The position numbers were made by a program, and so were the translations under genes. From Candidatus Daviesbacteria bacterium (GTDB lineage Bacteria > Patescibacteriota > Microgenomatia > Daviesbacterales > UBA10151): a stretch of 64,000 bases of DNA. Below the pieces are notes generated by a model that made no database searches, had not been told where the DNA came from, and saw only the letters and a program-made list of their open reading frames with translations. The stretch spans positions 113,104 to 177,103 of the forward strand of contig JACOXI010000003.1 in the NCBI GenBank assembly GCA_016176335.1, given 5' to 3'. Each line of letters begins with the position of its first letter. Positions within the stretch are counted from its first letter, which is position 1. Positions 5,069 through 21,879 of this stretch are shown piece after piece.

Positions 5069-5138
5069 AGCCAAATTGTACCATAAAATATTTTCAATCA
5101 CTAGTCCCAAAACCCTAAAATATGCTAAGCTGAAAATA

Positions 5139-6290
5139 ATGTCCAAGGTTAATAAAATTCTCGCAATAATATTTTTATTTAGTTTTGGCCTACTGGTTTA
5201 TTTCCCTCAGACAGTAGCGGCAGCCAATTGTCCCTTTACTTTTGATCCTCCTGTACCTTACCAAAATATGGGTGATTTATCGGTAACTATTACACCTCGT
5301 GATATAAAAAGTGGAACTTACCAACTTGTGACTTACAAAGGAAATATCTCCAAACCTGAAATAAATACACGTGGTGATATTCAATTAATTACAGGAAAGG
5401 CTGTTACCACTCAGCTCAAAAAACCACTCTCTGGATGGGAAGCAGGCACTTACACACTCTACCTGAGAGACCGAGATGTTGAGGGTAGTGTTCAAGATGT
5501 GGCTGCTTGTAAAACAAGCTTTTCCTTATCAGATATCCCAGCCCAACCTACATGTACGGCTAGTATAGAAACAAAACCAATTGATCCTGATACTAAAGTC
5601 GTATTAAAAATCTCCGATATTGCATCAGGTAATTACGATATATTAATAAATAATGAGTTTGCCGAGACATATAACACAAGTACCGGTGAAACAGTGTTTT
5701 TATGTAAGGGTGGAACTGAAGATAAGAATTGCAAATTTAATGTTGGTACCTATACAGTCACTATTAAAAACCAATGCGGATTCGGCGATTTCACTTGCAA
5801 AAGCCGGCTGCAGTGCAAGCCAGTAGCTTTCCAGGTTGCTCCTTTAGGAAGTGCTGGAGGTGGGCAGGTAGATACAACTCAAGTAGGGACTGCGACTACA
5901 AAGCAATGTAAAAGTAAGGATGATCCAACTTTCAATAAGAACACCGATATGGTTTGTGCTCTAGCTGGAGGGATTCCATGCGAGAATAAAAACGATGGCA
6001 GAGGACCAGCTTTTGCTACTGCCATTGGCTGTATTCATACCTCTCCTGTTGAATTTATCAAGGACTTTTTAAAGTTTATCTTGGGGATTTCCGGAGGATT
6101 GGCATTTTTGATGATGCTTTTGGGAATATTTCAGATGCTGACTTCTGCCGGTAATCCGGAGACTTTATCAGCCGGCAGGGACAGGTTGCAATCTGCCGTC
6201 ATAGGACTTTTGTTTGTAATTTTTGCTGTTCTTCTGCTTCGAATTATTGGAGTTGATATACTGGGACTGGGAGGACAGTTTGGTTTATAA
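5139..6290 (+). CDS. Secreted Cys/Thr-rich protein with C-terminal VirB2/TrbC-like pilin domain (candidate pilus-tip adhesin or major pilin precursor)
   Basis: Signal peptide (MSKVNKILAIIFLFSFGLLVYFPQTVAAA) and many Cys. The C-terminus (GIFQMLTSAGNPETLSAGRDRLQSAVIGLLFVIFAVLLL) carries the same motif as the five small pilin-like proteins downstream. Confidence 0.65.
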   Translation: MSKVNKILAIIFLFSFGLLVYFPQTVAAANCPFTFDPPVPYQNMGDLSVTITPRDIKSGTYQLVTYKGNISKPEINTRGDIQLITGKAVTTQLKKPLSGWEAGTYTLYLRDRDVEGSVQDVAACKTSFSLSDIPAQPTCTASIETKPIDPDTKVVLKISDIASGNYDILINNEFAETYNTSTGETVFLCKGGTEDKNCKFNVGTYTVTIKNQCGFGDFTCKSRLQCKPVAFQVAPLGSAGGGQVDTTQVGTATTKQCKSKDDPTFNKNTDMVCALAGGIPCENKNDGRGPAFATAIGCIHTSPVEFIKDFLKFILGISGGLAFLMMLLGIFQMLTSAGNPETLSAGRDRLQSAVIGLLFVIFAVLLLRIIGVDILGLGGQFGL

Positions 6291-6299
6291 TTTAAACCC

Positions 6300-6617
6300 A
6301 TGGAAAAGCTTGGTGATTTATTAAAAGATTCCGGTGTGCCAAACTTTAGCGGTCAAAATGCCAAACTTGGAGTACTTTTATCCGGCCTTTTAAACATAGC
6401 TTTTTATATTGCTGTTTTTTTGGCTTTTTATTGGCTGGTGTGGGGGGCTTGGGCTTATCTTTTTGCTTCAGGTAAAAAAGAAGACCTGGCCAAAGCACGG
6501 GCGCGAATCAGTTGGGCCTTAATAGGGTTAATTGTGATCTTTTTGGCTTACTTTATAGCCAAATATGCTTCGGAGTTTTTCCCAACACAATTTGGTAAAG
6601 GAGGAGGACCGTTTTGA
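6300..6617 (+). CDS. VirB2/TrbC-like pilin paralogue 1
   Basis: 105 aa, two TM helices. Family motif WGAWAYLFASGKKEDLAKARARISWALIGL (family consensus [WF]GAFxW[ML]TSGG(x)7AR(x)2I(x)2AxIG). Confidence 0.6.
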   Translation: MEKLGDLLKDSGVPNFSGQNAKLGVLLSGLLNIAFYIAVFLAFYWLVWGAWAYLFASGKKEDLAKARARISWALIGLIVIFLAYFIAKYASEFFPTQFGKGGGPF

Positions 6618-7018
6618 GAGAATTTAGAATTAAGCTTTTTTTGAATTATTTTTTTATAGCTTTATTCTTGATTCTTACAGCTTTATTCTTACCAATCCCT
6701 GCTTATGCTGCATCTCCTGCTCCCGGGGTAGATATTAAAGAGTATTTTGGTTTTGGAAATATTGGCTCTTTGGGGGAAGGGACTACCAGACTGGTGGAGC
6801 CGGCTTTTCAGTTAACAGCAGCAGTGGTGGTGATCTACTTTCTTTTGGGGGCATTTAAATACTTAAGGGCAGGTGGCAACAAAGAGGAACTGGAGGGTGC
6901 AAGGCAAATGATTATCCATGCCATTATTGGGTTTATAATACTCATGTTTGCTTTTTTGGTGTTACAGTTTATATTATCGAACTTGTTTAAAGTAACTGAT
7001 TTTCAGATAATAGGGTAA
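6614..7018 (+). CDS. VirB2/TrbC-like pilin paralogue 2
   Basis: 134 aa. Signal peptide, then GAFKYLRAGGNKEELEGARQMIIHAIIG. Overlaps the previous gene by 4 nt (operon). Confidence 0.6.
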   Translation: MREFRIKLFLNYFFIALFLILTALFLPIPAYAASPAPGVDIKEYFGFGNIGSLGEGTTRLVEPAFQLTAAVVVIYFLLGAFKYLRAGGNKEELEGARQMIIHAIIGFIILMFAFLVLQFILSNLFKVTDFQIIG

Positions 7019-7020
7019 TT

Positions 7021-7353
7021 ATGGATTTTTCAAAAAATTTCGGCTCTATTAGTCCCCCGCCTGCTATAAAAGATTTTATTGGCAGTGACCCAACAGGCGC
7101 AGGTGGAATTAGTCAGTTTTTAAGTAATCTTGTGACCCTGATTTATGGTTTAGCTGCCATAGTTTTGCTTTTTATGATCCTTTGGGGAGCTTTTGACTGG
7201 ATGACTTCCGGAGGGGAAAAAGAAAAGTTAGAATCTGCCAGAAATAAAATCATCAGTGCCATAATCGGCATCATGCTTTTTGCAGTGGCTTTTGCTATCA
7301 TCCAGGTTTTAGGCCAATTTACAGGATTTACATTTTTCGTCGGCCAAAAGTGA
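7021..7353 (+). CDS. VirB2/TrbC-like pilin paralogue 3
   Basis: 110 aa. WGAFDWMTSGGEKEKLESARNKIISAIIG. Confidence 0.6.
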   Translation: MDFSKNFGSISPPPAIKDFIGSDPTGAGGISQFLSNLVTLIYGLAAIVLLFMILWGAFDWMTSGGEKEKLESARNKIISAIIGIMLFAVAFAIIQVLGQFTGFTFFVGQK

Positions 7354-7410
7354 CCCTAATTCAACCAGCACTTGACAAGTAGTTTATACTTTGAATAAGA
7401 TTAAGACATT

Positions 7411-7785
7411 GTGAAAAAATTAGTTGTTTTATTATCAACCATTATTGCGCTTGTAGCCCCCAAGATAGCCTTTGCCGCTACTCCACCACCAGTTGTTGTT
7501 AGTCCTCCTCCTCAAGGATATCAGAATTTGGGAAATTTTATTACCCAAGCCATCACTTTGATTTTCGGGTTCGCCATTCTGGTAGTTTTGGTCATGCTGG
7601 TTTGGGGAGCATTTGAGTGGATTACCTCCGGAGGAGACAAGGAAGCTGTTGGCAAAGCCAGAAATAGAATTATTAATGCTTTGATAGGATTGGCTGTGTT
7701 GGCTGTGGCATATGCCCTGACAAAAGTGGCTGCAGATTTTGTAGGCATCAATCTTCTCAATATCACAATACCCGGACCGCCATAA
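7411..7785 (+). CDS. VirB2/TrbC-like pilin paralogue 4
   Basis: 124 aa, GTG start. Signal peptide AFAATPPP. WGAFEWITSGGDKEAVGKARNRIINALIG. Confidence 0.6.
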   Translation: MKKLVVLLSTIIALVAPKIAFAATPPPVVVSPPPQGYQNLGNFITQAITLIFGFAILVVLVMLVWGAFEWITSGGDKEAVGKARNRIINALIGLAVLAVAYALTKVAADFVGINLLNITIPGPP

Positions 7786-8216: not shown

Positions 8217-9529
8217 ATGAGGGAACACTGGCAACCAACCATAGAAGCTAATCGGCCACCAAACCAGCGTGATTTGCTCACACAACTACCCAGACCACTT
8301 CGAATAGTTTCTGCTGCTTTATCAGCAGCCATCAGTTTAGCACTGGCTGCCTGTGGGCCTACCCCTGCGCCTACCCCTAAACCTAGTCCTGAACAACCAG
8401 GATCATCGCCTGCTGTGGCAACTAAAGTTGAGACCCCCCCTCCGCAAGGATTCTGCCTTTGGATGGAGAGGTATATTTTACACAAGGAACTCATCCTTCA
8501 GACGGTTCTTCTACTGGTATCAAAAGTGGCATTGACTTGGCCCCCAAAAGAGTGGTCAATTGTGCCTTGGGAACTAAAGCTTTAGTAGAGGAGCAAGCCG
8601 CCCTCGCTACTGCCTCCGGCATACTCACAATTGTAGGAAACGAGAAAGATGCCAATGACCCAAATCACAGTATTGTGGAAATACAAGAGAGTGGCACTGG
8701 ATTACGGTTCGGGCTGATGCATTTGAGTCAATTACCCGACCATGTCCAAGTTGGCGGTAGGGTCTTAGCAGGAGCCCCTATTGGTAAATCTTCTTGTGAG
8801 GTCCCGAAAGGAGGCAAGACTACCGGAGTCCACCTACACCAGTATGTCAAAGATAAAACGGGTAAATATCTTCCTATTAATGGATTCACTTTTTCCGGGT
8901 GGAGAGTTGCGGGAGACACTATGACTAAGGGGAATGAAAAAAGAGTGGCAGATCAAAGACGCTGCGCCACTGATCAAGCCTGTGGCGGAATCAGGAATGA
9001 TTTAGGAACATTTTGGAGGAGTTCAAAGAGTGGTCTAGTAGACTCTGTGAAAGTCGATCCCCTACCCACAGTTACTCCTACAAGAATAGTCCCAAAATCG
9101 CCACCTCGGCAGGCAGAGTCTATCCCTACCACCCCATCCGCAGCAGCTAGGTTATTCATCCAAGCACTCGTTTCTGGGGACAGCAACAAAGCCCTGCAAT
9201 TGATGCCAGTTCCTGGTCAGGCTACATACAAAGCGGTTATGCTTGGCATTTCAGATGCACTTCGTGCATGTTCAGGGAGCGTCACTGAAGCGTCACACGG
9301 TCTTCGAAGTTACTATAATATTAGTTTTACTCCTTCATGTGGAACATTTGGCAGTTATTACGACGCGCTGCCGTCACATGATGTTGGTAATGTTAAGGCG
9401 GCATTCGCGTTGCTTGGACAAATCGACCCCTTGCGTAATCGACGTTTGGTTGGATGTACGGTAACAGTCATGTCAGTCAATGACCAATGGAGGATTATGT
9501 ACTTACCTACATGCCTACCGTCTCAATAA
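8217..9529 (+). pseudogene. Lipoprotein M23-family (LytM-like) peptidase, split by a +1/-1 frameshift at a C7 homopolymer (8434-8440)
   Basis: Frame 0 encodes a lipobox signal (ISLALAACG) and a Pro/Thr linker. Frame 2 opens at 8432 and encodes M23 motifs (GIDLA...GTKALV; GVHLHQY). The two frames meet exactly at a cccccccc tract. The segment looks GC-richer than its neighbours. Confidence 0.55.
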
Positions 9530-9601: not shown

Positions 9602-11395
9602 ATGATACTTAGAATCAAGCGATTAGAATTAAGCAAAGCTTTCCTTTCGCATTTGCAAAACGTAAGAATTAAGCTTTTTGTATTCTTTATGCTTACTGCT
9701 TTATTCTTTTTGCTTATTCCTACTGCTTTTGCCCAAACCTCTACCCCCAGTGCAGTGCAGTCTACTGTCTACAGTCTACCGTCTACTGTCCAGCCCACCT
9801 CCCCTCTTTATACCGACCTTTTGGTAAATAATATGTTTCATACTTTTTCCTGTCTGGCTGTGGGGTCTTCTGTCATTGGCCAGCCATGTTTAACTTACCA
9901 GATGACCCAAAATGCCCAGGGTATGCTGCAAGGAGTACCTGTTTTATCCCAAACTAACCTGTCAGGAGGGGCTTTGGGGGCCACCACCTCTTTAATTGGC
10001 ATGTTGTATCTTAATCCGCCGGTTCGAACAGCTGATTATCTGGCATCTTTGGGAGAGCAGTTTGGAGTGGTAAAAGAAGCCCGGGCACAAGTTGGGGGAT
10101 CAGGAGCCCAGGTTTTAAGTCCAATTTTAAACCTTTGGCAGGTATCAAGAAATATATCTTATGTGATTATGATCATTATTTTTGTGATTATTGGGCTGAT
10201 GGTGATGTTTAGACAAAGAATCAATCCCCAAACAGTCATTACTGCCCAGGCAGCCCTTCCTGGATTGGTAATCGGCTTAATCTTAATTACTTTTAGCTAT
10301 TTTTTGGCAGGACTGATATCAGATACGGCATTTGTGGGAACCAATGTTGTGGGATATTATTTCTCTGCAGCACAGGGTATCCCTCCACAAAATTTGGTTG
10401 AAAATATGAAAGATAAGAATGTTTTGAGTATTTTCAGCCCGCTGACGGGAATTATTGACAAAGATAATGCCGCTAGTGCGCTGAGTTCTATATGGAACGG
10501 CTTAAGCGACGGAGCACAGCGCTTATTAACACTGTTGGCTATGTTTGTAACCGCCCAAACAATTTTGCAAGGCACAGAGTTTCTAAAGCTGATCAAAACC
10601 TTCGGAGAGCCCATTCAAGCGGCACTTACCACTATAGCAGTAGGCGCTACTTTGGCTAATCCTACAGCTCTTATAGGGCTTGCCTTAGCCTTTATAGCAA
10701 CTGCTGTATTGCTTTATTCCATGTTCAAATTATTGTTACGCTTAATCAATAATTATATAACCATCATATTTTTGACAATTACTGCTCCTTTCCAATTCCT
10801 GGCTGCATCGTTGCCTGGAAGACAAAGCATAGCCACAGGTTGGATCTTAAATATGCTTTGCAATGTTTTGGCATTCCCGGCGGTTTTTGCCGCTCTTTAT
10901 TTCGTGGCTTTTATTTTGGGACCAAATGTTGATGCTGTGAAAAAGCTACCTTTTCAAACCACTACCACTTCAATAACCGGAACTTCCACATTTCCTCTTT
11001 TTGGAGGTTTGGATCTTAACTTTATTAATATTCTTCTGGCATTTGGAGTTTTAGTGGCACTACCCAGTATCCCGGATATAATTTGCCGGACAATCGGCAG
11101 GGTGGGGGTAGCAGGACAGCTGATTGGCCAGGAAATTGGGGGCGGCATTGGCCAAGGCAGACAATATGCCGGTCAATTCCAGCAGGGCGTAGGAGCTGCC
11201 AGCGGTCAATTAGCCAGAGCCAGAGGCTTGTTTAATACTCCTGGGTATAAAATGGAGTTGATTCCCGGCACTATTGATCAATATAGGATTGTAGAAACAT
11301 ACGAGGCGGGAAGGGGTGCTACTTTTGGAGCTTTGACTAGACAAGGAATTCGCAAACCACCAAAATTAGAACCAGGCGTCAGGTCGGGAATATAA
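9602..11395 (+). CDS. VirB6/TrbL-like polytopic membrane protein of the type IV secretion-like system
   Basis: 597 aa. Signal peptide, periplasmic segment, then 6 or more TM helices. Gly/Gln-rich C-terminal tail. Its position after the pilin genes is typical for VirB6/TrbL. A possible later start is M at 9689. Confidence 0.55.
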   Translation: MILRIKRLELSKAFLSHLQNVRIKLFVFFMLTALFFLLIPTAFAQTSTPSAVQSTVYSLPSTVQPTSPLYTDLLVNNMFHTFSCLAVGSSVIGQPCLTYQMTQNAQGMLQGVPVLSQTNLSGGALGATTSLIGMLYLNPPVRTADYLASLGEQFGVVKEARAQVGGSGAQVLSPILNLWQVSRNISYVIMIIIFVIIGLMVMFRQRINPQTVITAQAALPGLVIGLILITFSYFLAGLISDTAFVGTNVVGYYFSAAQGIPPQNLVENMKDKNVLSIFSPLTGIIDKDNAASALSSIWNGLSDGAQRLLTLLAMFVTAQTILQGTEFLKLIKTFGEPIQAALTTIAVGATLANPTALIGLALAFIATAVLLYSMFKLLLRLINNYITIIFLTITAPFQFLAASLPGRQSIATGWILNMLCNVLAFPAVFAALYFVAFILGPNVDAVKKLPFQTTTTSITGTSTFPLFGGLDLNFINILLAFGVLVALPSIPDIICRTIGRVGVAGQLIGQEIGGGIGQGRQYAGQFQQGVGAASGQLARARGLFNTPGYKMELIPGTIDQYRIVETYEAGRGATFGALTRQGIRKPPKLEPGVRSGI

Positions 11396-11420: not shown

Positions 11421-14400
11421 TTAAAGAGCCATCTTATCAAATAACCACCCAGCCCAATCTCGACCATCAAACTTTTTGACCCATTTACCATCTTCAGATA
11501 CAAAATAGTAATACGGCTGCCTAAGTAATTTGTAGATTTCTGCCTCACCTTTATATGCCTGCACTCCACCTCCGGGCCCTTTATCCAGCAGCCAGTCTAC
11601 ATAAGCATTCCAAAACATTCTGGCAATATGCCTGGAACTCCCGGTATTCCTCTCCTTTTCTAGGGCTATAGCCGGATTAAACCTGCCATCCGGTAAAAAG
11701 ACATCTGTTTTCCTCAAATCCAATGCTCCGCCGGCATTTCTACTATCCGAGTACATTGTTCTAATAGTTTTTAATGTGTCCCAAACTCTGCCAAAAGAGT
11801 CCAATAGTATATGAAACACTTCTGTTTCTCCTTCAGGCTTCTGCAAAGCATCAGTTAATTTCTGCCTTATCTCTAACACTTTTTCAGCATTATTGGTTGG
11901 TTTCATAAATAACCCTTCATGATGAAGCCCTGTTTTAGGATCAATCCCACCAATCAAAGCAAACCACAAGGAGGTACCGCTATCCATCAGGTTAATAAAT
12001 TTAGTAATAGCAAACTGGCTGGCTATTCTTTGGCCTGTTAGTTCGTGAATTTTATCATCCATCATTGAAACAGCTCCTATTACTCCTTTGCGTCCTAAAT
12101 TACCAGCCATGGTGTCTGCATGTATAGGAGCCGCAGAGAGTGCTGCGGTAAATCTTCTGGCCCATCTTTTAGGCATTTTGGCAACTAAGGCTTCGATTTG
12201 CAAAGCAAACCTGAACTCCCCTCCTTGATCCTCTGTATAGTACCCAGTACCCATATATTCCGCATTACCATCCTTAGGTAAAAATCGTTCCTTGAAAGCA
12301 TCTCTGACATTGACCCAACCCAAAAGTGACTCTTCAACTGCAGCATCAAAAACAATCCCCTCTAAAGTCATCTGTTCTCCGGGAAACGCTTTGACCCTGC
12401 ATAAAGTCGGGTCCAAAGTCAAAAGTAACCCTGCGAGAATATCTGCATCTTCTGGCCGTATTAGTCCATCCCTGATTTGCCTGGCCTGGTCAAACACATA
12501 ATCAGGCAAAAGGGTATGGGTATTGTTGCTTTGATAAGCAAAATAGGTGTGGGCAGTATGTAAGGCTAAATAACTGTCTGCTGCAGTTGGGAAATCCAAA
12601 TCAACTTCTTCAGTAAAAACACCGACAACAACACCTTCCCCGTCATTACGTTCTGTTAACACATATTCACCTTTATAAATTTGGCTGTCCAGATTGACGC
12701 GCTGACGTTCCTTTCCTCCTGGTTTATCATAGACAATAGCTTTACCCAACTCATCAAAATCGCTCTCGCCTAAACCCACAGGTCTGCCATCTTGGCCAAA
12801 AACAATAATAGGTTGACCGTTTCGGGTGTAACCGAAAACATGCGGTCTTTTTAATTTTATTTGGCTAAGAGTAAGCGGTTGAGGTTCAACCTTCTCGGGC
12901 TTTAAATTACCGTCCTTATCGAAATAATCTAAGTAATCAGCTGCATAATCAGCATCAGAAAATTTTGCCGCAAAGCCTTTTTCACTAACCGCATCTAGAG
13001 CCCTTTCAAGCGCCTTCTGCACCATAGCTGACCTATATCTGGCTCTAAAGTTACCGTGCTTACCTTCGTCGTCTTTTTCATCCAGTCTTTTTTTAAAGTC
13101 CGGTTCATCCCAGATAGGCGAGTCGTCTCTGTATTTCATCCTAGTCCAATTCACCACAGCCATAACAGTCTTTTGAGCTAAATGAGCGGGTATTTGATCA
13201 ACAATTCTTTCCCTATCTTCCGGACTTAATCCGTTATATAAAGCTTGTTCCTCTGGGGAGAAAGTATCTCGTCTTTTACCCTTTGATATTCCATCCAAAA
13301 TCCACCCGATATGTTGATCCCTCGTAAATGTTGTTTTTCTTTTTTCAAGCGACCATTCGCTAATATCAGGATCTTCAGCTTTTTGATCCTTATGATTCTT
13401 TTGCCGGAACTTTAGGTACTCCCGGACGTATTTATTTCTCTCAATAAAGTAAACTGCTCCGCCTCTGATAGTTGTTTCATGAGTTACACCTTGCATCTGC
13501 ATAGCAACTTCAAAGCTGGCTTCTGAGATGGCATAAGCTTTCTCATATCGTTTCTTCTCTTTTTTTGTAATTCGTTTTAGACTCACCAATTTATCAATTA
13601 ACGTTTCCTTTCTTCCTAGAATTATTGTCCCTGTTCTAACTTCCTGCCTCAACGTATCCATCAAGACTTGAATCTTCCCTAATTTCACAGAATCCCGTAA
13701 TCTCTTAGGAAGACGGTCCGGATCTATACGTCTTTTACCAACATATTCCTGATAGTTGTTTCTATGAACATCACCGTTATCAAAACCTTCATACAAAGCC
13801 TTAAACGCCTCAGCAGATTGATGAATACCTATCCGCTCCTGATTAGTCCTGGTATGTAATTTTGCTTGCAAATAATATTTCCGATCTTCTTCCGTTAAAC
13901 TTTCCAAGTCATCATCATTTCTTTTAAGATGCTCATCGAGCTGCTCCAGGAATGTTGCTCTGTCTAAGCGTAATTTAGGATCAGAGTCAATCTCTGCATC
14001 ACGCCAGTCATAGTCTTTTAAGACAATACCTATTCCTCTTTCTTTCAATCTTTCATAAGTGATTCTTCTAATATACTCATGTACTTGAGTACTGTCTCCA
14101 AATTGTCCTCTTGAACCTTGGGCATTAAGAGCAAATTCTACCATTGCCAAATTATCCAGATTCCACGTATGAAATCCTACCCCTCCCTCTTCCCCTGAAC
14201 GGAGAGCTCTGGTCCATCTTTCCGGTCCTTCATGCATGGCCATGGCCATCGCACCCTGTTTAGCGCCTTCCTTGTTGTAATGCTCACTGTTATAAAAAGT
14301 GTGCCACAGGAAAGCCCTTCCTTCAAATTCCTGCCTCAACTCTTTCATAAAGCCAGCTGTCATCTTATCCGGCACATCATCCATACCTTCTTGCTCTAAT

Positions 14401-15671
14401 ACCAACTCATTTCCTCTTGCGCTCAACACTTTCTTGAAATTCAGCAAATTTTGCATTAACTCATTAGGATCATATCCCAGGGCACGATTTTTAAGCATTT
14501 GCAGAAAAGTTTCTTTTGCGATACGGAATTGGGCAGGAGTTTTAGCACTGATCGTGTAATAATCCGGATAACCGCCGTATGGTTCCCAATAAGTTTCTGT
14601 TCTCTCACCTTCCTCTTCTTCGCCCGGGATACGCCATTCGCCTTCCTTGTAAGGACCAGGGTTTTCACCATTAATTATTTTCCTAAGTTTTCCGCGCGTC
14701 CATACAATATATGCAGTTTCAATATCCAATAACCTGGGGTTAACCTGAGGATCTTTTGCTTTACCGAGCAGAGCATCCTCAAGGGCCTGTCGGGCTTCCG
14801 GCTCCCTTTGTGCCAATAAAGCCAAGGCCTGTTTTTTTGAATAGGTTTTATTCTTAAAACCCAAAAATATAGCGTTATAAACTTCATCAACTTCCTTGAA
14901 TAATCCTTTTCTATGAGCTTCCTTAAAATATATAAGTAAATCTTTTTCTACTTGTTCTCTTTCGGTAATTGGAAGACGCAGATTCAGATATTTGGCGGTT
15001 AAGGTTTCTAAATTCTCACCTCTTGTTTCAATCTCGGTGAAATCTTCAGGCCCGGGCCCGTCTGTCTTTTTTGCCAGTTCAACACCTCTAGCAATTCTCT
15101 CTGCATATGCCTCTTTTATTGCCTCAATGAGCGGCTTGTCAGGCTGCTTTGTGACTTGGTGCTCTTTCTCAAGATTTAAAGGATCTTGCAGGTATCTGTC
15201 TTTTTGCTCTCTCTCTACAAAAGCTTTTAACCCTCTAGACAATTCGTACAGCCTTGGACCATTTTCGGCATTCCATCTAACCTCATAAGACAGCTCCGTC
15301 TCCATATAGGTAATCTCCTCCACCAGCCATCTCCCTCTTTCCGGACTGACTTTCCATTCCGGTCCACTGGTTGGCTCTGGTAATACTGCAGTTTCAGCTC
15401 CTGCTATTTGTCTTATCCTGGCAACTTCTTTGCCTGTTGTTGGATCGGTAAAGACAGTAAAGCCGTCTCTTTCGCTCTTTAGATATTCTCCTGCTCTTTT
15501 AGGATCATAGTCCCTTGAAATATGCCAAGGTTTTTGAGGATTTTGCTCGCCGGAAGGTTGAACCGGAGGCTGGCTTTCAACGATTGCAAAACCTGTTTGA
15601 CCCTCGCCCCCCGGGGTTGCGCCTTCTGGTCCTAGTGTTCCTTCTGCCATATTTCTTTCTGGTTGTGCCAT
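11421..15671 (-). CDS. Very large (1416 aa) soluble protein of unknown function with acidic Pro/Glu-rich N-terminus; no recognisable catalytic motif
   Basis: Uninterrupted 4.25 kb ORF on the opposite strand to the flanking T4SS-like genes. No TM helices, P-loop, HExxH or methyltransferase motifs found by eye. Confidence 0.85.
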   Translation of the reverse strand: MAQPERNMAEGTLGPEGATPGGEGQTGFAIVESQPPVQPSGEQNPQKPWHISRDYDPKRAGEYLKSERDGFTVFTDPTTGKEVARIRQIAGAETAVLPEPTSGPEWKVSPERGRWLVEEITYMETELSYEVRWNAENGPRLYELSRGLKAFVEREQKDRYLQDPLNLEKEHQVTKQPDKPLIEAIKEAYAERIARGVELAKKTDGPGPEDFTEIETRGENLETLTAKYLNLRLPITEREQVEKDLLIYFKEAHRKGLFKEVDEVYNAIFLGFKNKTYSKKQALALLAQREPEARQALEDALLGKAKDPQVNPRLLDIETAYIVWTRGKLRKIINGENPGPYKEGEWRIPGEEEEGERTETYWEPYGGYPDYYTISAKTPAQFRIAKETFLQMLKNRALGYDPNELMQNLLNFKKVLSARGNELVLEQEGMDDVPDKMTAGFMKELRQEFEGRAFLWHTFYNSEHYNKEGAKQGAMAMAMHEGPERWTRALRSGEEGGVGFHTWNLDNLAMVEFALNAQGSRGQFGDSTQVHEYIRRITYERLKERGIGIVLKDYDWRDAEIDSDPKLRLDRATFLEQLDEHLKRNDDDLESLTEEDRKYYLQAKLHTRTNQERIGIHQSAEAFKALYEGFDNGDVHRNNYQEYVGKRRIDPDRLPKRLRDSVKLGKIQVLMDTLRQEVRTGTIILGRKETLIDKLVSLKRITKKEKKRYEKAYAISEASFEVAMQMQGVTHETTIRGGAVYFIERNKYVREYLKFRQKNHKDQKAEDPDISEWSLEKRKTTFTRDQHIGWILDGISKGKRRDTFSPEEQALYNGLSPEDRERIVDQIPAHLAQKTVMAVVNWTRMKYRDDSPIWDEPDFKKRLDEKDDEGKHGNFRARYRSAMVQKALERALDAVSEKGFAAKFSDADYAADYLDYFDKDGNLKPEKVEPQPLTLSQIKLKRPHVFGYTRNGQPIIVFGQDGRPVGLGESDFDELGKAIVYDKPGGKERQRVNLDSQIYKGEYVLTERNDGEGVVVGVFTEEVDLDFPTAADSYLALHTAHTYFAYQSNNTHTLLPDYVFDQARQIRDGLIRPEDADILAGLLLTLDPTLCRVKAFPGEQMTLEGIVFDAAVEESLLGWVNVRDAFKERFLPKDGNAEYMGTGYYTEDQGGEFRFALQIEALVAKMPKRWARRFTAALSAAPIHADTMAGNLGRKGVIGAVSMMDDKIHELTGQRIASQFAITKFINLMDSGTSLWFALIGGIDPKTGLHHEGLFMKPTNNAEKVLEIRQKLTDALQKPEGETEVFHILLDSFGRVWDTLKTIRTMYSDSRNAGGALDLRKTDVFLPDGRFNPAIALEKERNTGSSRHIARMFWNAYVDWLLDKGPGGGVQAYKGEAEIYKLLRQPYYYFVSEDGKWVKKFDGRDWAGWLFDKMAL

Positions 15672-15699
15672 GGTTTTGTATAGAAAAGTTTTCCAAAAC

Positions 15700-15790
15700 C
15701 TATGGACTGATTCCCTTCGACTTCGTCCTTCGATTTCACTCAGGACTTCGCTCAGGGTTATAATCAGTGTAGAGCTTCGGTCAACTAACT
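15700..15790. repeat. R2 GC-rich motif cluster (AGTCGAAGG / CCTGAGCG direct repeats) in the 5' leader of the 1416-aa gene
   Basis: Minus-sense reads CCCTGAGCGAAGTCCTGAGTGAAATCGAAGGACGAAGTCGAAGGG. The same motifs are found at 17975-18060 and 43600-43712, always just upstream of a gene and in the same relative orientation. Confidence 0.55.
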
Positions 15791-15884
15791 GTCAATCCTT
15801 CGACACTATGCTTCGGACTGATCTCCTTTCTAGATTGTTTATCGTAACGCCTTGCGGCTCTTCGTATATCGAATATCGCGGATT

Positions 15885-15930
15885 GCCGATAAACGATAAC
15901 CGATTAACGATAAACCATTAACCAATTACC
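15885..15930. repeat. R3 module CGATAAACGATAACCGATTAACGATAAACC (degenerate tandem 8-9-bp units) in upstream region of 1416-aa gene
   Basis: 29 of 31 nt identical to a segment inside tsaD (40402-40432). Related CGTATATCG / GTTTATCGT motifs flank the gene at 46768-47130. Confidence 0.55.
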
Positions 15931-16004
15931 TGCTTGATTTAATTCTGATTAAATCCTGATGATTTTGAGGCTAAATAATAGGCCTTCTACCTGCATATAT
16001 CTAT

Positions 16005-16283
16005 CTACTTTTCTTCTTGGTATAACTGGTCGTGAGTTCCCAATAAGACAAAGTAAACAACAACAACTTCTCCTTCACTCTTCTCTGCATAAATTGCCCG
16101 CCAATTTGCAGTTATATCAATGCTTCGCAGTCCTTGGTATGGTTCTTTTAACAGGTGGTTATCTAATTCAAAGTCATTAGGGTTTCTGGAGAAAATCAAA
16201 ACTTTTTCCTTGAAGCTCTTGCGAACTCTCACATCTGCTTTTTTCAGAGTGCGTAAAAAGATAGGGGAATATCTGATGATCAT
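16005..16283 (-). CDS. yafQ: YafQ/RelE-family type II toxin (ribosome-dependent mRNA interferase)
   Basis: 92 aa. HLLKEPYQGLRSIDITANWRAIY...LLGTHDQLY parallels E. coli YafQ (HPLQGSWKGYRDAHVEPDWILIY...RTGTHAALF). Overlaps the upstream dinJ by 4 nt. Confidence 0.75.
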   Translation of the reverse strand: MIIRYSPIFLRTLKKADVRVRKSFKEKVLIFSRNPNDFELDNHLLKEPYQGLRSIDITANWRAIYAEKSEGEVVVVYFVLLGTHDQLYQEEK

Positions 16284-16564
16284 ATTCCCTGTTTTTCAAG
16301 CCAAGCAACCGCTTCCTCTCCGGTTTTAAATGCCGGGGATGTTCTGCCTGCCTTCCAATCTTTCTCTGCTTGGCGGATAGCGTTTTTTAAGTACTCGCTC
16401 GGTTCTTCATCTCTGGCGCTAAACTCCACAGACTTTGTCCTAATAAACTGTTTTAAGAATGCCTTAATGACAACAGATAAAGGCATGCCAAGCGCTTCAG
16501 CTGTGGCTTGGGCTTCTTTTTTAGTTTTGGGGTCAACTTTGGCAACAACTACTGCATAACTCAT
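16280..16564 (-). CDS. dinJ: DinJ/RelB-family antitoxin
   Basis: 94 aa. N-terminal ribbon-helix-helix region (MSYAVVVAKVDPKTKKEAQATAEALGMPLSVVIKAFLKQF) typical of DinJ. Forms an operon with the toxin. Confidence 0.75.
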   Translation of the reverse strand: MSYAVVVAKVDPKTKKEAQATAEALGMPLSVVIKAFLKQFIRTKSVEFSARDEEPSEYLKNAIRQAEKDWKAGRTSPAFKTGEEAVAWLEKQGI

Positions 16565-16607
16565 GGTATACTAAAGTATATACATTGGTACACCCATTTG
16601 TCAACAG

Positions 16608-17963
16608 CTAAATTAACGTCCCATTGCATACATAACACTTTTCAGTGCAGTAATTTACCTCTCCACAACTGATACAGCTTTTACCTTTCTTGCCTGCTTC
16701 TCCTCCAAAAACACTGCTTATGCTTCTAACTATTCCTGAAATCAAATTGCCGATCTTACTGGCAATACCTCCAACTGAAAATCCTGCTGATAATCCGCAT
16801 CCTCCTGCAACTACCCTGACTGCCTGATAACCCAGCCAGTTAACCTTCTCTTCCAAAGTCTTAAAAATAGGCATGATTTTATTTACAATTTTAGATGTCA
16901 TGCTTACCACTTTATCTTTTATACCAACTAAACCCTCCCAAATATAATCTGCTCCATTCAAAACAGCATTTAGGGCAACTTTTACCTGCTCGGGTGCAAA
17001 AACTGATCCACATATTCTATCTACCAAACAATGTATAAGGTCTGAACTCCCCTGGGCAATTTTTTGAAAACCCTCTTCTTTTAAAGCATTTTTCCTTTGT
17101 ATTAAGATCTCACCGCTACTTTCAAAAATAGGATTAGCCAGCAACCACTGATCTTTTGACCCTACCCTTCCATTAAAATAATCCGGTCTTGAAGCGGTTA
17201 TCATCTCTTCTGCCTGCTCATAACTTAAGTCTGAGGCAAAACGAGTCATTTGAACTATTCTTCTTCGAGTAAATGGGTCTTCTAAAAGCTCGTAACGATC
17301 CAAGAAATTATCAGTGAATATAGTACCTTCTACTAAACCAGGCCCTGAGATAACTTCAACTTTTAAATCTACTGGGGCGTTTGGATCTGCAAAAGCTTTC
17401 TGTATTTTTACAATACCAACCTTCTCTTGTTCTATTCTTGGAACATCATGTGATCCCATTTGCCTGTAATATTCAATGCCAACTGTTAAAACGTCTTCAA
17501 AAGCTTGATTGGGTAAATCCCTACTTCTTAACTTGCCATCATCATCAATATCATAAATAACAATACTGGTGGCTACATGGTAGCGTTCTCTTAGAGCAGT
17601 TTCTATCTGCTTTATTTCATGAAGTTTAAACTGTTTTCTTTCTTCTTCGGTTTGCAGAGTCTCAAACATTGCTCTTTCTAAAACAGGATTATAATTTCTA
17701 ACAGGCCCTCTTGCTTTTGTTTCTAAACTTCCATCAAATTGATTTTGTAATCTTGCTACTCTTGCTAAATATTCTTCAGTATCGAGTTTTTGTGTGTTAG
17801 AAACCCCTGTAGGGGGTAAGATTCGCTCGATTGGTCGCGCAATAACTATTGTATTATTAAAAGGGGAAACCTGTTCTCGTCTACCTCCTACATCCGGTTG
17901 AATTAAAATATCTAACTGCTTAAGATTTGGGGGTGTTAAATGTTGAAGTGTCTCTACTGACAT
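16608..17963 (-). CDS. Hypothetical 451-aa protein with Gly-rich segment and C-terminal Cys4 zinc-ribbon-like tail (CISCGEVNYCTEKCYVCNG)
   Basis: Long ORF. SD-like AGGAG lies 4 nt upstream of the ATG. No recognisable enzymatic motif. Confidence 0.7.
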   Translation of the reverse strand: MSVETLQHLTPPNLKQLDILIQPDVGGRREQVSPFNNTIVIARPIERILPPTGVSNTQKLDTEEYLARVARLQNQFDGSLETKARGPVRNYNPVLERAMFETLQTEEERKQFKLHEIKQIETALRERYHVATSIVIYDIDDDGKLRSRDLPNQAFEDVLTVGIEYYRQMGSHDVPRIEQEKVGIVKIQKAFADPNAPVDLKVEVISGPGLVEGTIFTDNFLDRYELLEDPFTRRRIVQMTRFASDLSYEQAEEMITASRPDYFNGRVGSKDQWLLANPIFESSGEILIQRKNALKEEGFQKIAQGSSDLIHCLVDRICGSVFAPEQVKVALNAVLNGADYIWEGLVGIKDKVVSMTSKIVNKIMPIFKTLEEKVNWLGYQAVRVVAGGCGLSAGFSVGGIASKIGNLISGIVRSISSVFGGEAGKKGKSCISCGEVNYCTEKCYVCNGTLI

Positions 17964-17974
17964 ATTGCTCCTGC

Positions 17975-18060
17975 AACGGGACCCTTCGACTACGCTCAGG
18001 GTAAATTGTGGTCGGTCTCCTGGCTCTTCGACTCGCTTCGCTCGCTCAGAGCTATAGCTT
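17975..18060. repeat. R2 GC-rich motif cluster upstream of the 451-aa gene
   Basis: Minus-sense reads TCTGAGCGAGCGAAGCGAGTCGAAGAG ... CCCTGAGCGTAGTCGAAGGG, directly before the RBS and ATG. Confidence 0.55.
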
Positions 18061-18163
18061 ACCGAATCACAGTTGCGGCACAGCCCCGGACTTACACCGG
18101 GTTCCCTTTTTGTATCTTCTCCCGCTTAAAGGCGGCATGATACACCACGTTTTAAGAATAACA

Positions 18164-18262
18164 ACTCAAAACTCAAATGTCAAAACTCAAAATTACAAAT
18201 CAAATCTCAAAACTTTTTAGATTTAAGATGTAGATTTGCGATTTGAGATCTAAGATTGAGAT
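18164..18262 (+). repeat. Dispersed ~100-bp repeat R1, copy b
   Basis: CTCAAAACTCAAATGTCAAAACT ... GATGTAGATTTGCGATTTGAGATCTAA. Matches 15-118 and the reverse complement of 45630-45735. Lies about 80 nt upstream of the gene at 18341. Confidence 0.55.
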
Positions 18263-18340
18263 TAGTAGAGATTGTCCCATAATGATCCCTTTTGTGCTGC
18301 TTGCCATCATTTTTTTCACATTGTATACATTTAAGTAATT

Positions 18341-19384
18341 ATGGAATCGCACCCAATCCCACAAAATGTCACCACTTTCCAGTTCCACCTGGTTGGGGAT
18401 ATGACCTTAAAGCAATTTATATACCTTGCCACAGGCTCCGGATTAGCCTATTTTGTGTTTATTTTTTTTGTGGCGGATTATCCATATTTTGCTTGGCCGC
18501 TGATCTTGACTGCTGCCGGGTTGGGAACAGCTTTTGCCTTCTTGCCTATAAATTCCAGACCATTGGATTATTGGACTGCAGCTTTTTTAAAAGCAATTTA
18601 TTCACCCACCAAAAGAGTCTGGAAGAAAAATAATAAATCTTACCAGGAAGATCCTACCTTTAACAGCAGGCTTTTCACATATTTAGCAGGTCTTCAGCCT
18701 ATTCAACAGCAACCTGTACCTCCCGTCTATAATCCACCGCATGTTGCAAAGTCTGTCACCGCAGAAGCTCCACCCCTGCCCACCCCCGAACAGTTGGGAA
18801 AAACAGTTGATCTGGCAAGACAGGCACAAAACCTGCAAATGAAAATAATCCAAACCGAGCGAACCCTAAATCAGATTAAGACAGCCGCACAAAGTCCAAC
18901 CCAAATACCTGTTGATTACACGCAACAAGTTAATACCGTGCTGTCAGATTTGCAAAATCTGGTCACCCAAGCATCTCAAATCAAACAACAGATTGAGTTT
19001 GTTCATCAGCCTGAACCTACAAACACCCTTCCTTTGCCAATTGCCCCAAGGCCGAAGGTGACAGTAATTGTTCCTACCAAAGCAAAAGTGACCCAAGTGG
19101 CCCTGACCACATTCCCCAATGTCATAAACGGCATAGTTAAAGATGCCAATGCCAATTACCTGGAAGGAGTGGTGGTGGTAATTTATGATAAGGAAGGATT
19201 GCCTGTCAGAGCGCTGAAAACAAACAAATTAGGTCAGTTTACAGGTTCTACCCCCTTGCCAAACAGTATTTACACTGTTGAGCTGGAGAAAGATGGATTT
19301 GCTTTTGATGTTTTGCAGGTTGAATTAACAGGCACAACTTTACCGCCTTTAACAATTACGGCAAAGGGGCCGGGAGTTTCCTGA
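18341..19384 (+). CDS. VirB3/PrgI-like membrane protein with extended Gln/Pro-rich C-terminal region
   Basis: N-terminal pair of TM helices (LAYFVFIFFVADYPYFAWPLILTAAGLGTAFAFL) resembles the VirB3/PrgI family. Lies immediately upstream of the VirB4 genes. Function is inferred from position and topology. Confidence 0.4.
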   Translation: MESHPIPQNVTTFQFHLVGDMTLKQFIYLATGSGLAYFVFIFFVADYPYFAWPLILTAAGLGTAFAFLPINSRPLDYWTAAFLKAIYSPTKRVWKKNNKSYQEDPTFNSRLFTYLAGLQPIQQQPVPPVYNPPHVAKSVTAEAPPLPTPEQLGKTVDLARQAQNLQMKIIQTERTLNQIKTAAQSPTQIPVDYTQQVNTVLSDLQNLVTQASQIKQQIEFVHQPEPTNTLPLPIAPRPKVTVIVPTKAKVTQVALTTFPNVINGIVKDANANYLEGVVVVIYDKEGLPVRALKTNKLGQFTGSTPLPNSIYTVELEKDGFAFDVLQVELTGTTLPPLTITAKGPGVS

Positions 19385-19385
19385 A

Positions 19386-20135
19386 ATGAGTACAACGCAA
19401 CAACATCTGTCCATATCTGACATCAAAGACAATATAATTTTGCTAAAAGACGGCGGCGGGGCCTTGGTTTTGCAAATTTCCGCCGTAAACTTCAGGCTTC
19501 TATCTGAACGTGAGCAAATTGCCATCATCAGTAGCTTTGCCCAAATGTTAAACTCGCTTTCTTTTTCTATCCAAATCCTAATTTTTTCAGAAAGATTAAA
19601 TATCAACTCTTATCTTGTGCTTTTGGATAAAGCCCAAAAATTACAGTCTAATCCGATGCTTTCCAATATGATCATAAATTACCGCCAGTTTATCCAAAAT
19701 ACCATCAAGGAAAACGAGGTCCTGGATAAAAAATTCTATCTAGTGATCCCGCTTTTTAATCTGGAGCTGGGGCTTGCACCCACCAGAGTTATTTTGCAAC
19801 AAAAAATCAAAACCATACTGCTTCCCAGAAGAGATCAAATAATAAGACAGCTTTCAAGAGTGGGGCTGGCAGCAATCCAACTGAACACAAATGAGCTGAT
19901 TGAACTATTTTATGATATTTACAATGGCCAGTTTGTGGAAAGTATGGCCTCAAAGCCAATTAGCGCCGATACAATGCAGGTCCAATTAAACCAACCTCAA
20001 GAGGCTGTTAAAACTTCAACATACAAATCTCAAGTTGTTGATCAACCCCAAGCTCCGCTACAACCAAGCCCTGCTACTACCCAGTCATCAAGAACACACC
20101 CGTTTGTGGTGGAGGAGTTAGATGAAAATACCTAA
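19386..20135 (+). CDS. VirB4 N-terminal-domain-like protein (no ATPase motifs)
   Basis: SISDIKDNIILLKDGGGALVLQISAVNFRLLSEREQ resembles the N-terminus of Gram-positive VirB4/TraE/PrgJ homologues. Overlaps the next ORF by 14 nt in a different frame. Confidence 0.45.
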   Translation: MSTTQQHLSISDIKDNIILLKDGGGALVLQISAVNFRLLSEREQIAIISSFAQMLNSLSFSIQILIFSERLNINSYLVLLDKAQKLQSNPMLSNMIINYRQFIQNTIKENEVLDKKFYLVIPLFNLELGLAPTRVILQQKIKTILLPRRDQIIRQLSRVGLAAIQLNTNELIELFYDIYNGQFVESMASKPISADTMQVQLNQPQEAVKTSTYKSQVVDQPQAPLQPSPATTQSSRTHPFVVEELDENT

Positions 20136-21879
20136 TCCTTTTAAAAAACAACCTGACGAGCAATCCACTCCTACCCAACTAACTATTGAGGATGTGCTTG
20201 CTCCGCAGGAGATTGAGGTTGATTTCCATAACTTAAGGATCAATGACCGTTTTTTTAGGACTTACTTTATCTCCAATTACCCGCGGTTTGTGGAACCGAA
20301 CTGGCTGGAGCCAATAATATCTTTTGATCACTCGCTTTTGATATCGATGTTTATATACCCTTCCCAATCTGCCGGTGTATTGGATGATTTAAAAAGAAAG
20401 ATTGCCGAGATGGAAGCAACAATACAAACGGATTTTGAGCGGGGAAGAGCCATAGACCCGTCTGTTGAGGTGGCTTTGGAAGACGCCAGGGGTTTACAGG
20501 AACAGTTGGTCAAAGGGGTTGAGAGATTTTTCCAGTTTGCCCTTTATGTGACCATTCCCTCCGCAAGCTTAGAAGAATTACACAATACCTCAAAACTGGT
20601 TGAATCAACGCTTGCATCTTTATCTATGAGCGCAAAAGTGACATCTTTGCAGATGGAAGACGGGTTCAAATCAACTCTCCCGCAAGGAACGGATTTGTTA
20701 AATCTAACCTATAATATGGACACTACCTCCTTGGCAACAACCTTTCCTTTTGCCTCATCGGAGCTGACAGCTAATGAAGGTATTATGTATGGAATCAACG
20801 AACATAATGATTCGCTCATACTTTTTGACAGGTTTAGCTTGGAGAACGCCAATTCTGTGATTTTTGCCAAAGCCGGAGCCGGGAAATCATATCTGGTTAA
20901 ACTTGAAGCCTTACGTTCTTTGATGTTTGGGACGGAGATTATTATCATCGATCCTGAACAGGAATACTTACCTTTATCGCAAGCTGTGGGAGGAGAATTT
21001 ATTAACTTTTCCGCCTCATCTCCTATTAAAATAAACCCGTTCGACTTAAATCCGCAACTGGCATCCGGTGAAAATGAGTTGGGGAGGAAAATTCTATCTT
21101 TGACCGCATTCTTAAAACTGGTTTTGGGTAATTTAAGCGCAACAGAGGCGGCAATACTGGACAGATCCTTAAAACAAACATACCAGCAAAAGGGAATTAC
21201 GGATGATCCTAAAACGCAAGATCGACAACCACCTTTAATGGAGGATTTGTACAAAGTTTTAATGGGCATGGAAGAACCATCTGCCCTGGAACTTGCGGCA
21301 AGATTGGAAAGATTTATTAAAGGCTCTTTGACCGGAATATTTTCTGCCCAATCAAATGTGGCAATTGCCAATGCCTTTACGGTTTTTTCGGTCAGAGACT
21401 TGCCGGACCAACTACGACCTTTGGCAATACACATGATTTTGGAGTATGTTTGGACCAAAATAAGAAGCAGGCTTAAAAAAAGAATCCTGATTGTTGATGA
21501 AGCCTGGTATCTGATGAGAAATGCTGACAGCGCAGATTTTTTGGTGGATATGGCCAAAAGGTCAAGAAAATACTATTTGGGTTTAACCACTATAACGCAG
21601 GATGTTGAGGATTTTTTGACAACGGAGAGAGGAAAAGAAATCATCTCAAATTCCTCAATTCAAGTTCTTTTAAAACAAGCGCCTGTTTCAATTGACCTTT
21701 TGGCCAAGGTGTTTAATCTGTCCGAGGGCGAACAAAGACTGCTGCTGTCAGAGGGAATAGGACAAGGATTGTTTTTTGCAGGCAATACTCATGTTGCCAT
21801 GAGAGTGGTTGCCTCACCGAAGGAACACCAACTCATCACCTCAAACCCGCAAGAGATTTTGGCAAGACAAAGTGTTTAA
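20122..21879 (+). CDS. VirB4/TraE-like conjugal-transfer-type ATPase
   Basis: Walker A FAKAGAGKSY and Walker B ILIVDEAWYLM. The N-terminal YFISNYPRFVEPNWLEPI motif is typical of VirB4. Confidence 0.75.
   Translation: MKIPNPFKKQPDEQSTPTQLTIEDVLAPQEIEVDFHNLRINDRFFRTYFISNYPRFVEPNWLEPIISFDHSLLISMFIYPSQSAGVLDDLKRKIAEMEATIQTDFERGRAIDPSVEVALEDARGLQEQLVKGVERFFQFALYVTIPSASLEELHNTSKLVESTLASLSMSAKVTSLQMEDGFKSTLPQGTDLLNLTYNMDTTSLATTFPFASSELTANEGIMYGINEHNDSLILFDRFSLENANSVIFAKAGAGKSYLVKLEALRSLMFGTEIIIIDPEQEYLPLSQAVGGEFINFSASSPIKINPFDLNPQLASGENELGRKILSLTAFLKLVLGNLSATEAAILDRSLKQTYQQKGITDDPKTQDRQPPLMEDLYKVLMGMEEPSALELAARLERFIKGSLTGIFSAQSNVAIANAFTVFSVRDLPDQLRPLAIHMILEYVWTKIRSRLKKRILIVDEAWYLMRNADSADFLVDMAKRSRKYYLGLTTITQDVEDFLTTERGKEIISNSSIQVLLKQAPVSIDLLAKVFNLSEGEQRLLLSEGIGQGLFFAGNTHVAMRVVASPKEHQLITSNPQEILARQSV

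Follow-up and report, generated by a model that had tools for sequence, protein, structure and literature searches.

Three predicted transcription units, one under a cobalamin riboswitch, between the halves of a Daviesbacteria type IV secretion locus

In this study, we examined four minus-strand genes that lie between the two halves of a type IV secretion system (T4SS) locus, close to the putative replication origin (oriC), in a 64,000-nucleotide stretch of a Candidatus Daviesbacteria genome (assembly GCA_016176335.1, contig JACOXI010000003.1; the whole stretch is called the window below). We propose that they probably form three independently transcribed units, namely a gene switched by a cobalamin (vitamin B12) riboswitch and concerned with cobalamin handling, a toxin-antitoxin (TA) insert in a cassette hot spot, and the gene of a giant protein associated with the T4SS. 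A first-pass annotation had described the interval as one acquired cassette. Its four co-directional genes between the pilus-locus halves were reproduced at the same coordinates from the open reading frame (ORF) list; it had left out the riboswitch upstream of them, and regulation by B12 had not been considered. The features of the interval are listed here, and each of the three units has a separate promoter-like site.

11421-15671, minus strand: giant protein gene, 1416 aa (ORF list)
15766-15795, minus strand: promoter-like site of the giant gene, TTGACA-18-TACACT (consensus scan)
15931-15974, minus strand: cassette-boundary repeat, TTTAGCCTCAA....TCAGGATTTnnTnAGnAnTnAATCAAGCA, with an imperfect inverted repeat GGATTT-N10-AAATCA within it
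16005-16283, minus strand: RelE/StbE-family toxin (ParE/YafQ superfamily), 92 aa (TIGR02385 match)
16280-16564, minus strand: RelB/DinJ-family antitoxin, 94 aa (Pfam RelB match)
16575-16604, minus strand: promoter-like site of the TA pair, TTGACA-18-TATACT, 11/12 matches (consensus scan)
16608-17963, minus strand: 451-aa protein of an unnamed family of the Candidate Phyla Radiation (CPR) (ORF list)
17993-18164, minus strand: cobalamin riboswitch aptamer RF00174 (cmscan)
18155-18183, minus strand: promoter-like site at the 5' edge of the riboswitch, TTGACA-17-TATTCT with a TG extension (consensus scan)

The comparison with relatives separates these units. The same order was found in every Daviesbacteria relative examined: the PrgI-VirB4 half, the riboswitch-controlled gene for a protein of ~450 aa, a variable slot, the giant gene, and the half with the VirB6-like gene and the pilins, all beside dnaA/dnaN, with VirB4 proteins 82-89% identical. 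Such a conserved arrangement was the outcome that had been set beforehand as refuting a single acquisition. Co-occurrence of the two big proteins, which had also been proposed for testing, is not obligatory: at least eight loci (L007, L008, L015, L016/18, L020, L021, L026, L028, L029) have a member of the 451-aa family and no giant protein, and in L001, L003 and L004 the slot proteins that accompany the giant protein are not homologous to this family. A model in which all four genes were acquired horizontally as one TA-stabilised cassette, inserted between the T4SS halves with the giant protein as cargo effector, does account for their common orientation opposite to the T4SS genes, for a TA pair of the kind typical of acquired DNA, and for two big proteins that are both orphans. 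It is hard to reconcile with the conserved order next to dnaA, the separate occurrence of the big proteins, the GC content of the interval, which shows no anomaly, the promoter-like site of each unit, the TA pair as the only part that changes as a cassette, and the result that neither big protein was found on plasmids or phages. We consider this model scarcely credible as a whole; the acquired-cassette reading fails for the two big genes and is kept for the TA pair.

The riboswitch and the 451-aa protein family

A conserved structured leader first became apparent when sequence 5' of the 451-aa gene was aligned with its counterparts in related loci. The match to RF00174 scored 62.2 bits against a gathering score of 31.5 (E 5.3e-13) and covered model positions 1-189 of 189, with the B12 box AGCCAGGAGACCGACC present in the aptamer. 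The aptamer and the 451-aa gene are on the same strand, 30 nt separate the aptamer 3' end from the ATG, and an AGGAG ribosome-binding site stands 7 nt 5' of this ATG. The position of the TTGACA-17-TATTCT site relative to the riboswitch start at 18164 is consistent with a leader transcript, and the site is the putative promoter of the riboswitch gene. Within the divergent promoter region between this gene and prgI (18165-18270), ATCTCAA repeats opposite TTTTGAG repeats make up a long imperfect palindrome over the -35 hexamer; L001 has one too, and it may be an operator.

The association was surveyed in 20 distinct loci with upstream DNA that encode a relative of the 451-aa protein or its replacement protein, and matches to RF00174 or AdoCbl-II RF01689 of the cobalamin clan (Rfam CL00101) were counted. 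A clan aptamer lies directly upstream and on the same strand in 19 of the 20 loci. Thirteen are at or above the gathering score (the window, L001, L003, L004, L005, L007, L008, L009, L014, L016, L017, L019 and L021), and six are sub-threshold matches in the correct place (L015, L023, L025, L026, L028 and L029); L020 is the sole locus without a clan match upstream. The riboswitch stays with the gene far from T4SS genes as well (L007, L016/18, L019, L021, L026, L028). Judged from this sequence survey, the 451-aa gene belongs to the B12 regulon. In the literature searched, no paper was found to mention cobalamin riboswitches in connection with Patescibacteria or the Candidate Phyla Radiation.

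The family of the 451-aa protein is large: a full HMMER scan with the family profile gave at least 371 representatives at 50% identity, of which 251 were below 1e-30; none of the members looked up is named. An exact database match (P0022) is annotated in a Candidatus Daviesbacteria metagenome-assembled genome. In the AlphaFold model (pLDDT 76.6, core >90), the N-terminus is disordered, a PAS-like alpha/beta core of five strands is accompanied by helical bundles, and a low-confidence Gly-rich linker leads to a small terminal ribbon. Identity reaches 90% or more at 19 positions across 167 diverse members (E126, R127, G162, R176, E180, G183, S206, F220, D222, R241, D271, L275, P278, D339, C389, G394, C430, C433 and C446), and the invariant Cys389 lies within 'GGCGLSAGFS'. 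The tail had been described as three CxxC pairs; it has five cysteines (C430, 433, 439, 443 and 446) in the pattern CxxC-x5-C-x3-C-x2-C, and 162 of 166 members have a CxxC in the last 70 residues. An N-terminal hydrophobic segment was found in 0 of the 166 members, and the 451-aa protein itself has no transmembrane (TM) segment or signal peptide. Sequence and model together suggest that the protein is cytoplasmic and combines a conserved polar pocket with an invariant cysteine and a zinc ribbon.

Single-sequence and profile searches of both big proteins against Pfam, NCBIfam, PHROGs, PADLOC and PDB sequences gave no match, and the remote-homology searches proposed in the first-pass annotation placed neither in a family. 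For the 451-aa protein, homology or fold likeness to known corrinoid-binding or corrinoid-processing proteins was not found. Weak PHROG tape-measure matches to its Gly-rich tail (E 0.009-0.024) were dismissed as compositional. Readings of 'AAGCGLS' as a lipobox, a glycyl-radical motif or a Hedgehog-type 'GC' processing motif were dropped, as there was no signal peptide, RVxGY motif or Hint domain.

Members of the family in other CPR lineages have B12 genes as neighbours. In L026, a class II-type ribonucleotide reductase NrdJ (RNR barrel and TSCPD) and a PduO-type cobalamin adenosyltransferase precede the family member; PduO precedes it in L015, and DUF4430 and DUF6580 do so in L028. L029 has NrdJ, an AdoCbl riboswitch (45.9 bits), DUF4430, a DUF6580/ECF S-component and PduO, followed by the family member. 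Transcobalamin-type B12 binders have DUF4430 as their C-terminal domain (PMC4350170). The riboswitch and the NrdJ, PduO, DUF4430 and ECF-S neighbours thus assign the family to the acquisition or handling of cobalamin. A VirD4-like coupling-protein gene (DUF8128, DUF87, TrwB_AAD_bind) was also observed 2-3 genes downstream of the family member in L015 (5460-7823) and L029 (6308-8707), a second, independent closeness of the family to T4SS parts.

The tail was compared with that of NrdJ. The CPR NrdJ proteins of L026 (3032-3634) and L029 (1811-2386) have a six-Cys end, 'CPECG-x9-CKKCYSCGYSEC', and the 451-aa tail (16608-16700) reads 'CISCG-x4-CTEKCYVC', so both end in Cys arrays with CxxCG and CYxC. 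The cysteine-rich domain (CRD) of NrdJ binds zinc and acts as an electron relay (Loderer et al., 2017, PMC5704485). The 451-aa protein is without the 150-220-aa CRD body, it has no Pfam TSCPD match, and the hhalign match between the tails is weak (E 6e-4, probability 28%, 27 columns) and of a Cys-rich kind prone to composition artefacts; the likeness is a lead, not membership.

In Daviesbacteria relatives, whose T4SS cores are almost identical, three unrelated bodies alternate in the protein encoded by the riboswitch-controlled slot gene beside PrgI. Type A is the 451-aa family (the window, L005, L008, L009, L023, L025), type B is found in L003 (6702-8051), L004 (3809-5215) and P0050/P0051 (L014 336-1712), and type C is a 302-aa protein in L001 (8109-9017). 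Types B and C match the family only in the last ~40 residues (hhalign probability 97% and 95%, respectively), and all three types retain the small-residue-Cys motif, the Gly/Ser linker and the zinc ribbon. The start 'MSVETL' is often common to type B/C proteins and the 451-aa family, and identical tail variants were found on differing bodies. We rejected the L001 protein as a truncated 451-aa homologue, because the tail alone matches. Because of this modularity of the slot, a docking or secretion role for the tail is kept open.

The toxin-antitoxin slot and the giant protein

The pair in the second unit had been labelled DinJ/YafQ. It is indeed a type II TA pair of the same superfamily, but the YafQ part of the label did not hold: TIGR00053 (YafQ; 28.6 against 87.25) and PF15738 (23 against 30 bits) failed, whereas the toxin passed TIGR02385 (RelE/StbE; 33.3 bits against a cut-off of 27.9) and the antitoxin passed Pfam RelB PF04221 (26.1 bits against 22.4; TIGR02384, at 40.7 bits, was under its cut-off). 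The pair is therefore of the RelB/RelE type. Like RelBE/ParDE/DinJ-YafQ modules, it encodes small proteins, with the antitoxin first, the toxin start overlapping the antitoxin stop by 4 nt (ATGA), and a promoter-like site of its own that carries a palindrome. It differs from them in not being YafQ by the NCBIfam cut-off and in its repeat-bounded slot, which holds other TA types in relatives.

The earlier view of the pair as acquired is supported, and relatives, in which the interval holds 1-5 different cassettes, show it to be an exchangeable element. L001 has HTH_17/PIN, L003 two PIN pairs, L004 four TA pairs and an AAA_14 ATPase, L005 Phd/PIN twice, ParE and two AAA_14 genes, L009 AbiEii, and L008 PIN. 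A boundary repeat of ~45 nt follows the last stop codon of many TA/AAA_14 cassettes by 10-35 nt, 5' of the next promoter. Its core is TCAGGATTTnnTnAGnAnTnAATCAAGCA, with the invariant core TCAGGATTT..T.AG.A.T.AATCAAGCA. The pattern has one match in the window (15931-15959), with 0 expected by chance, three copies in L004 (7661, 8388, 9826), four in L005 (13245, 14690, 15362, 16858), and one each in L001, L003, L008 (12168), L009 (12803) and L023 (9242); there are 13 repeat-ended cassettes in all. Neither a consensus secondary structure nor covarying pairs were found in the repeat, and no integrase gene appears in the locus gene tables examined. The lack of a conserved hairpin makes a terminator, a structured RNA or an attC site less likely and, together with the lack of an integrase nearby, leads us to read the repeat as a protein-binding site and not as a classical attC. 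The binding would be sequence-specific, with the repeat as a recombination or regulatory site that marks the cassette hot spot.

The third unit is the giant gene, which has two in-frame candidate starts, M1 and M8 (15651-15671), with 'MAxxERNMAE' conserved in the family; P0001, the copy in the database, has 1409 aa and uses M8. The promoter-like hexamers of the gene (TTGACA-18-TACACT) do not vary when six orthologous upstream regions are aligned. In all loci examined the gene is present in one copy at a fixed position, convergent with the gene at the VirB6 position. A motif and hydropathy scan agreed with the first-pass description of a protein without a TM segment, P-loop or HExxH: Kyte-Doolittle means over 19 residues peak at 1.32, and Walker A, HExxH and CxxC motifs were all absent. 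The net charge is -24, and the acidic, Pro/Glu-rich character described for the N-terminus was likewise seen, with 12 Pro, 12 Gly and 11 Glu in residues 1-100. We rejected the protein as a type IV coupling protein (T4CP) or relaxase, as it has no P-loop and no family match.

About 20 homologues were found, all of 1320-1560 aa and all on Daviesbacteria-type contigs. The profile search gave no further ones, the genome scan turned up 3 species representatives only, and both, limited by word or pattern pre-filters, missed even the L009 homologue, so these searches do not show the giant protein to be absent elsewhere. Residues 1 to ~100 are hypervariable, of low complexity and rich in Pro, Gly and Glu, and the C-terminal ~390 aa are highly conserved and carry most invariant positions. 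The AF2 model of aa 217-1416 is mostly alpha-helical (pLDDT 70.6, pTM 0.45), with a small beta-rich insert at ~aa 905-1025; structure searches with the model found no fold relatives.

The protein diverges faster than its neighbours. Among relatives, its identity ranges from 34 to 75%, against 66-78% for the VirB6-like protein and 82-89% for VirB4, and it falls to 34-37% where VirB4 is 84-85% identical. The L009 version is without the middle region. P0021 (L013 15-3860), of 1281 aa, shares only aa 16-91 (42% identity, E 1e-14) and has an unrelated body, and its gene is convergent, at the same position, to a VirB6-like gene 48% identical to that of the window. In L008, a related Microgenomates locus, the giant protein is absent, at least from the 10 kb of downstream sequence examined; a 301-aa protein there was rejected as a giant fragment. 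Fast divergence, body replacement and linkage to the T4SS favour a substrate or adaptor under diversifying pressure over a housekeeping core, and from its sequence the giant protein is probably such a T4SS-associated substrate or adaptor rather than a housekeeping part.

The surrounding locus and comparison with known systems

The flanks of the interval carry the following T4SS genes, and the plus-strand flank 18341-21879 is divergent from the riboswitch-controlled gene.

5046-7785: three T4SS_pilin genes (Pfam T4SS_pilin)
9602-11395, plus strand: polytopic 597-aa membrane protein at the VirB6 position, ~7 hydrophobic segments
18341-19384, plus strand: PrgI (VirB3-like; family library match)
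20122-21879, plus strand: VirB4 ATPase (P-loop_TraG, 3e-23)

A 249-aa TraC/TrsD-like protein is encoded between PrgI and VirB4, and an SLT-domain lytic enzyme, a Big_5 protein and dnaN lie beyond VirB4. The cumulative GC skew has its minimum at ~25-26 kb of the window, which agrees with an origin nearby. The 597-aa protein is without a Pfam match, and its orthologues hold the same place in L001, L003, L004, L009 and L013. With VirB4, PrgI/VirB3, VirB2-like pilins, a chromosomal position near dnaA and no relaxase, the locus agrees with the description of Patescibacteria MPF-FATA-like T4SS (PMC12102498). A T4CP and a recognisable VirB8 were not found in family scans of the window proteins.

Several further observations concern this locus. 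A 356-aa ORF (8459-9529, plus strand) between the pilin array and the VirB6-like gene has a weak Peptidase_M23 match and a TTG start and overlaps ORF 8217-8585; at this spot relatives have a Fic gene (L004) or a MazE/PIN pair (L003), which makes it a second variable slot. Small bAvd / 23S_rRNA_IVP genes occur in pilin arrays and beside prgI (L004 19551-19937; L009 9324-9707 and 20430-20786). bAvd is an accessory protein of diversity-generating retroelements, and these genes may have a role in pilin diversification. The record of L012/L004 (CAZJNI010000001.1) is labelled 'uncultured Gammaproteobacteria bacterium', and its locus is typical of the Daviesbacteria T4SS/dnaA region; the label is probably wrong.

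The Patescibacteria MPF-FATA-like T4SS surveyed by Quinonero-Coronel et al. (2025, PMC12102498) is like the present locus in VirB4, PrgI/VirB3, the TrsD/TraC-like protein, the VirB2-like pilin array, the lytic enzyme, the lack of a relaxase and the position at dnaA/dnaN. The riboswitch, the ~450-aa slot gene, the TA hot spot and the giant protein were not described in that survey and would be among its unannotated 'grey' genes. The Patescibacteria T4SS has been reported as essential in Southlakia epibionticum (per PMC12857230), and its role has been called 'completely unknown' (PMC11665869).

The 451-aa gene resembles members of the B12-riboswitch regulons of auxotrophs, which comprise uptake and salvage genes and B12-independent isozymes, in its cobalamin-clan aptamer in the 5' leader and in an organism that apparently imports B12. 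It differs from known B12 regulons in that its protein is in no described B12 family, has no TM segment or signal peptide, and has its body replaced in sister genomes. PPE proteins are exported by a specialised secretion system. The riboswitch upstream of ppe2 in M. tuberculosis offers a parallel, since the controlled gene is likewise of uncertain function (PMC11260477).

For the giant protein, effectors of the CagA kind are the nearest comparison, in that both exceed 1200 aa, are mainly helical, are confined to a narrow lineage, are encoded in a T4SS locus and diverge fast. CagA of Helicobacter is a large alpha-helical T4SS effector encoded inside its secretion island. There is no similarity of sequence or fold between such effectors and the giant protein, whose C-terminal domain is unusually conserved. 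No secretion signal is defined for Patescibacteria T4SS; a secreted or T4SS-associated role, indirectly supported by locus linkage and fast divergence, is possible. The riboswitch class, the TA family and the T4SS locus type are known. The literature searched had neither a family defined by a B12 riboswitch nor interchangeable bodies with a common Cys and zinc-ribbon tail, a repeat-bounded TA hot spot or the Daviesbacteria giant protein.

A model of the three units and its alternatives

Considering all the above results, we propose a plausible model for the interval. The first unit would run from the promoter through the cobalamin riboswitch to the 451-aa gene. Binding of cobalamin by the leader would turn the gene off, so that the protein is made when B12 is scarce, and the protein may then capture, process or escort a corrinoid in the cytoplasm between uptake and NrdJ, using its polar pocket (E126, R127, R176, E180, D222, R241, D271, D339), Cys389 and the zinc-ribbon tail. 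The second unit would be the RelB/RelE pair with its own promoter in the cassette hot spot, and the third the giant gene with its own conserved promoter and a soluble, mostly alpha-helical predicted product.

Several points weigh against this model. No B12 enzyme or transporter was found in the 64-kb window, and control by a riboswitch shows B12 regulation, not a B12-metabolic function, as such riboswitches also control B12-independent substitutes. For a dedicated enzyme, the unrelated bodies B and C that fill the slot in sister genomes are unusual. Nothing like a minus-strand terminator was found between the units, and transcription that starts at the riboswitch promoter may continue into the TA pair and the giant gene. 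The highly conserved C-terminal ~390 aa of the giant protein and its single copy per locus would suit a structural core part as well.

On account of the conserved C-terminal domain, we retain a structural alternative, in which the giant protein is a lineage-specific structural or cytoplasmic core part of the Daviesbacteria T4SS, for example a platform that takes the place of the VirD4 or VirB8 functions missing from the locus. The dozens of invariant residues in this domain, the conserved promoter of the gene, its single copy and fixed position in every locus examined, and a locus without a T4CP or recognisable VirB8 (PMC12102498) would all suit such a part. A core part that has no P-loop and no TM segment, keeps only 34-37% identity in genomes with such similar VirB4 proteins, has its whole body replaced in P0021 and its middle deleted in L009, and is absent downstream in L008 is less easily imagined, and we regard this alternative as unlikely. 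For the TA slot, cassettes in rows of up to four, each followed by the repeat and most of them TA pairs like those of chromosomal integrons, recall an integron-like cassette array with the repeat as an attC-type capture site. As attC sites are defined by structure, the lack of a consensus hairpin or covarying pairs makes this array a long shot, as do the lack of an integrase gene in any locus gene table, the R''/R' core sites, which are not evident, and the promoter carried by each cassette.

The slot proteins may also be viewed as T4SS substrates or adaptors that are induced by B12 starvation and act on a host for corrinoids, with the shared tail of bodies A, B and C as the recognition module and the giant protein co-delivered. 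The slot gene is beside PrgI/VirB4 in the window, L001, L003-L005, L008, L009, L023 and L025 and 2-3 genes from the VirD4-like coupling protein in L015 and L029; its products diverge fast, their bodies are swapped while the 'MSVETL' N-terminus and the tail are kept, as in polymorphic effectors, and nutrient acquisition has been proposed for the Patescibacteria T4SS, the role of which is unknown (PMC11665869). Yet the family is not near T4SS genes in at least eight loci, the tail is present in several sequence types, a polar pocket this strongly conserved points to an enzyme that works in the cytoplasm of the producing cell, the B12 clusters that also contain PduO and NrdJ represent cytoplasmic pathways, and there is no secretion evidence of any kind. 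We consider this view rather improbable, and cobalamin handling in the cytoplasm is the reading of the 451-aa protein that we prefer.

A bolder form, to which we would give little chance, is that the essential-type Patescibacteria T4SS is wired to B12 scavenging in Daviesbacteria: starvation would release the polymorphic protein, its tail would dock to the T4SS as substrate or adaptor, the giant effector would be co-delivered, and corrinoids or other cofactors would be drawn from the host. If true, this wiring would be the first functional handle on Patescibacteria T4SS cargo. If the adjacency is merely positional, the riboswitch-defined family and the cassette hot spot would be useful annotation, with no new mechanism.

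Patescibacteria are unable to make nucleotides or cofactors. This work adds an unnamed, widespread CPR family to the B12 regulon. Since it adjoins genes for NrdJ, PduO, DUF4430 and ECF proteins, the family may supply a missing step by which the B12-dependent ribonucleotide reductase is fed. Furthermore, a B12-controlled gene, a TA hot spot and a hypervariable giant protein amid a T4SS locus provide testable candidates for its cargo or adaptors.

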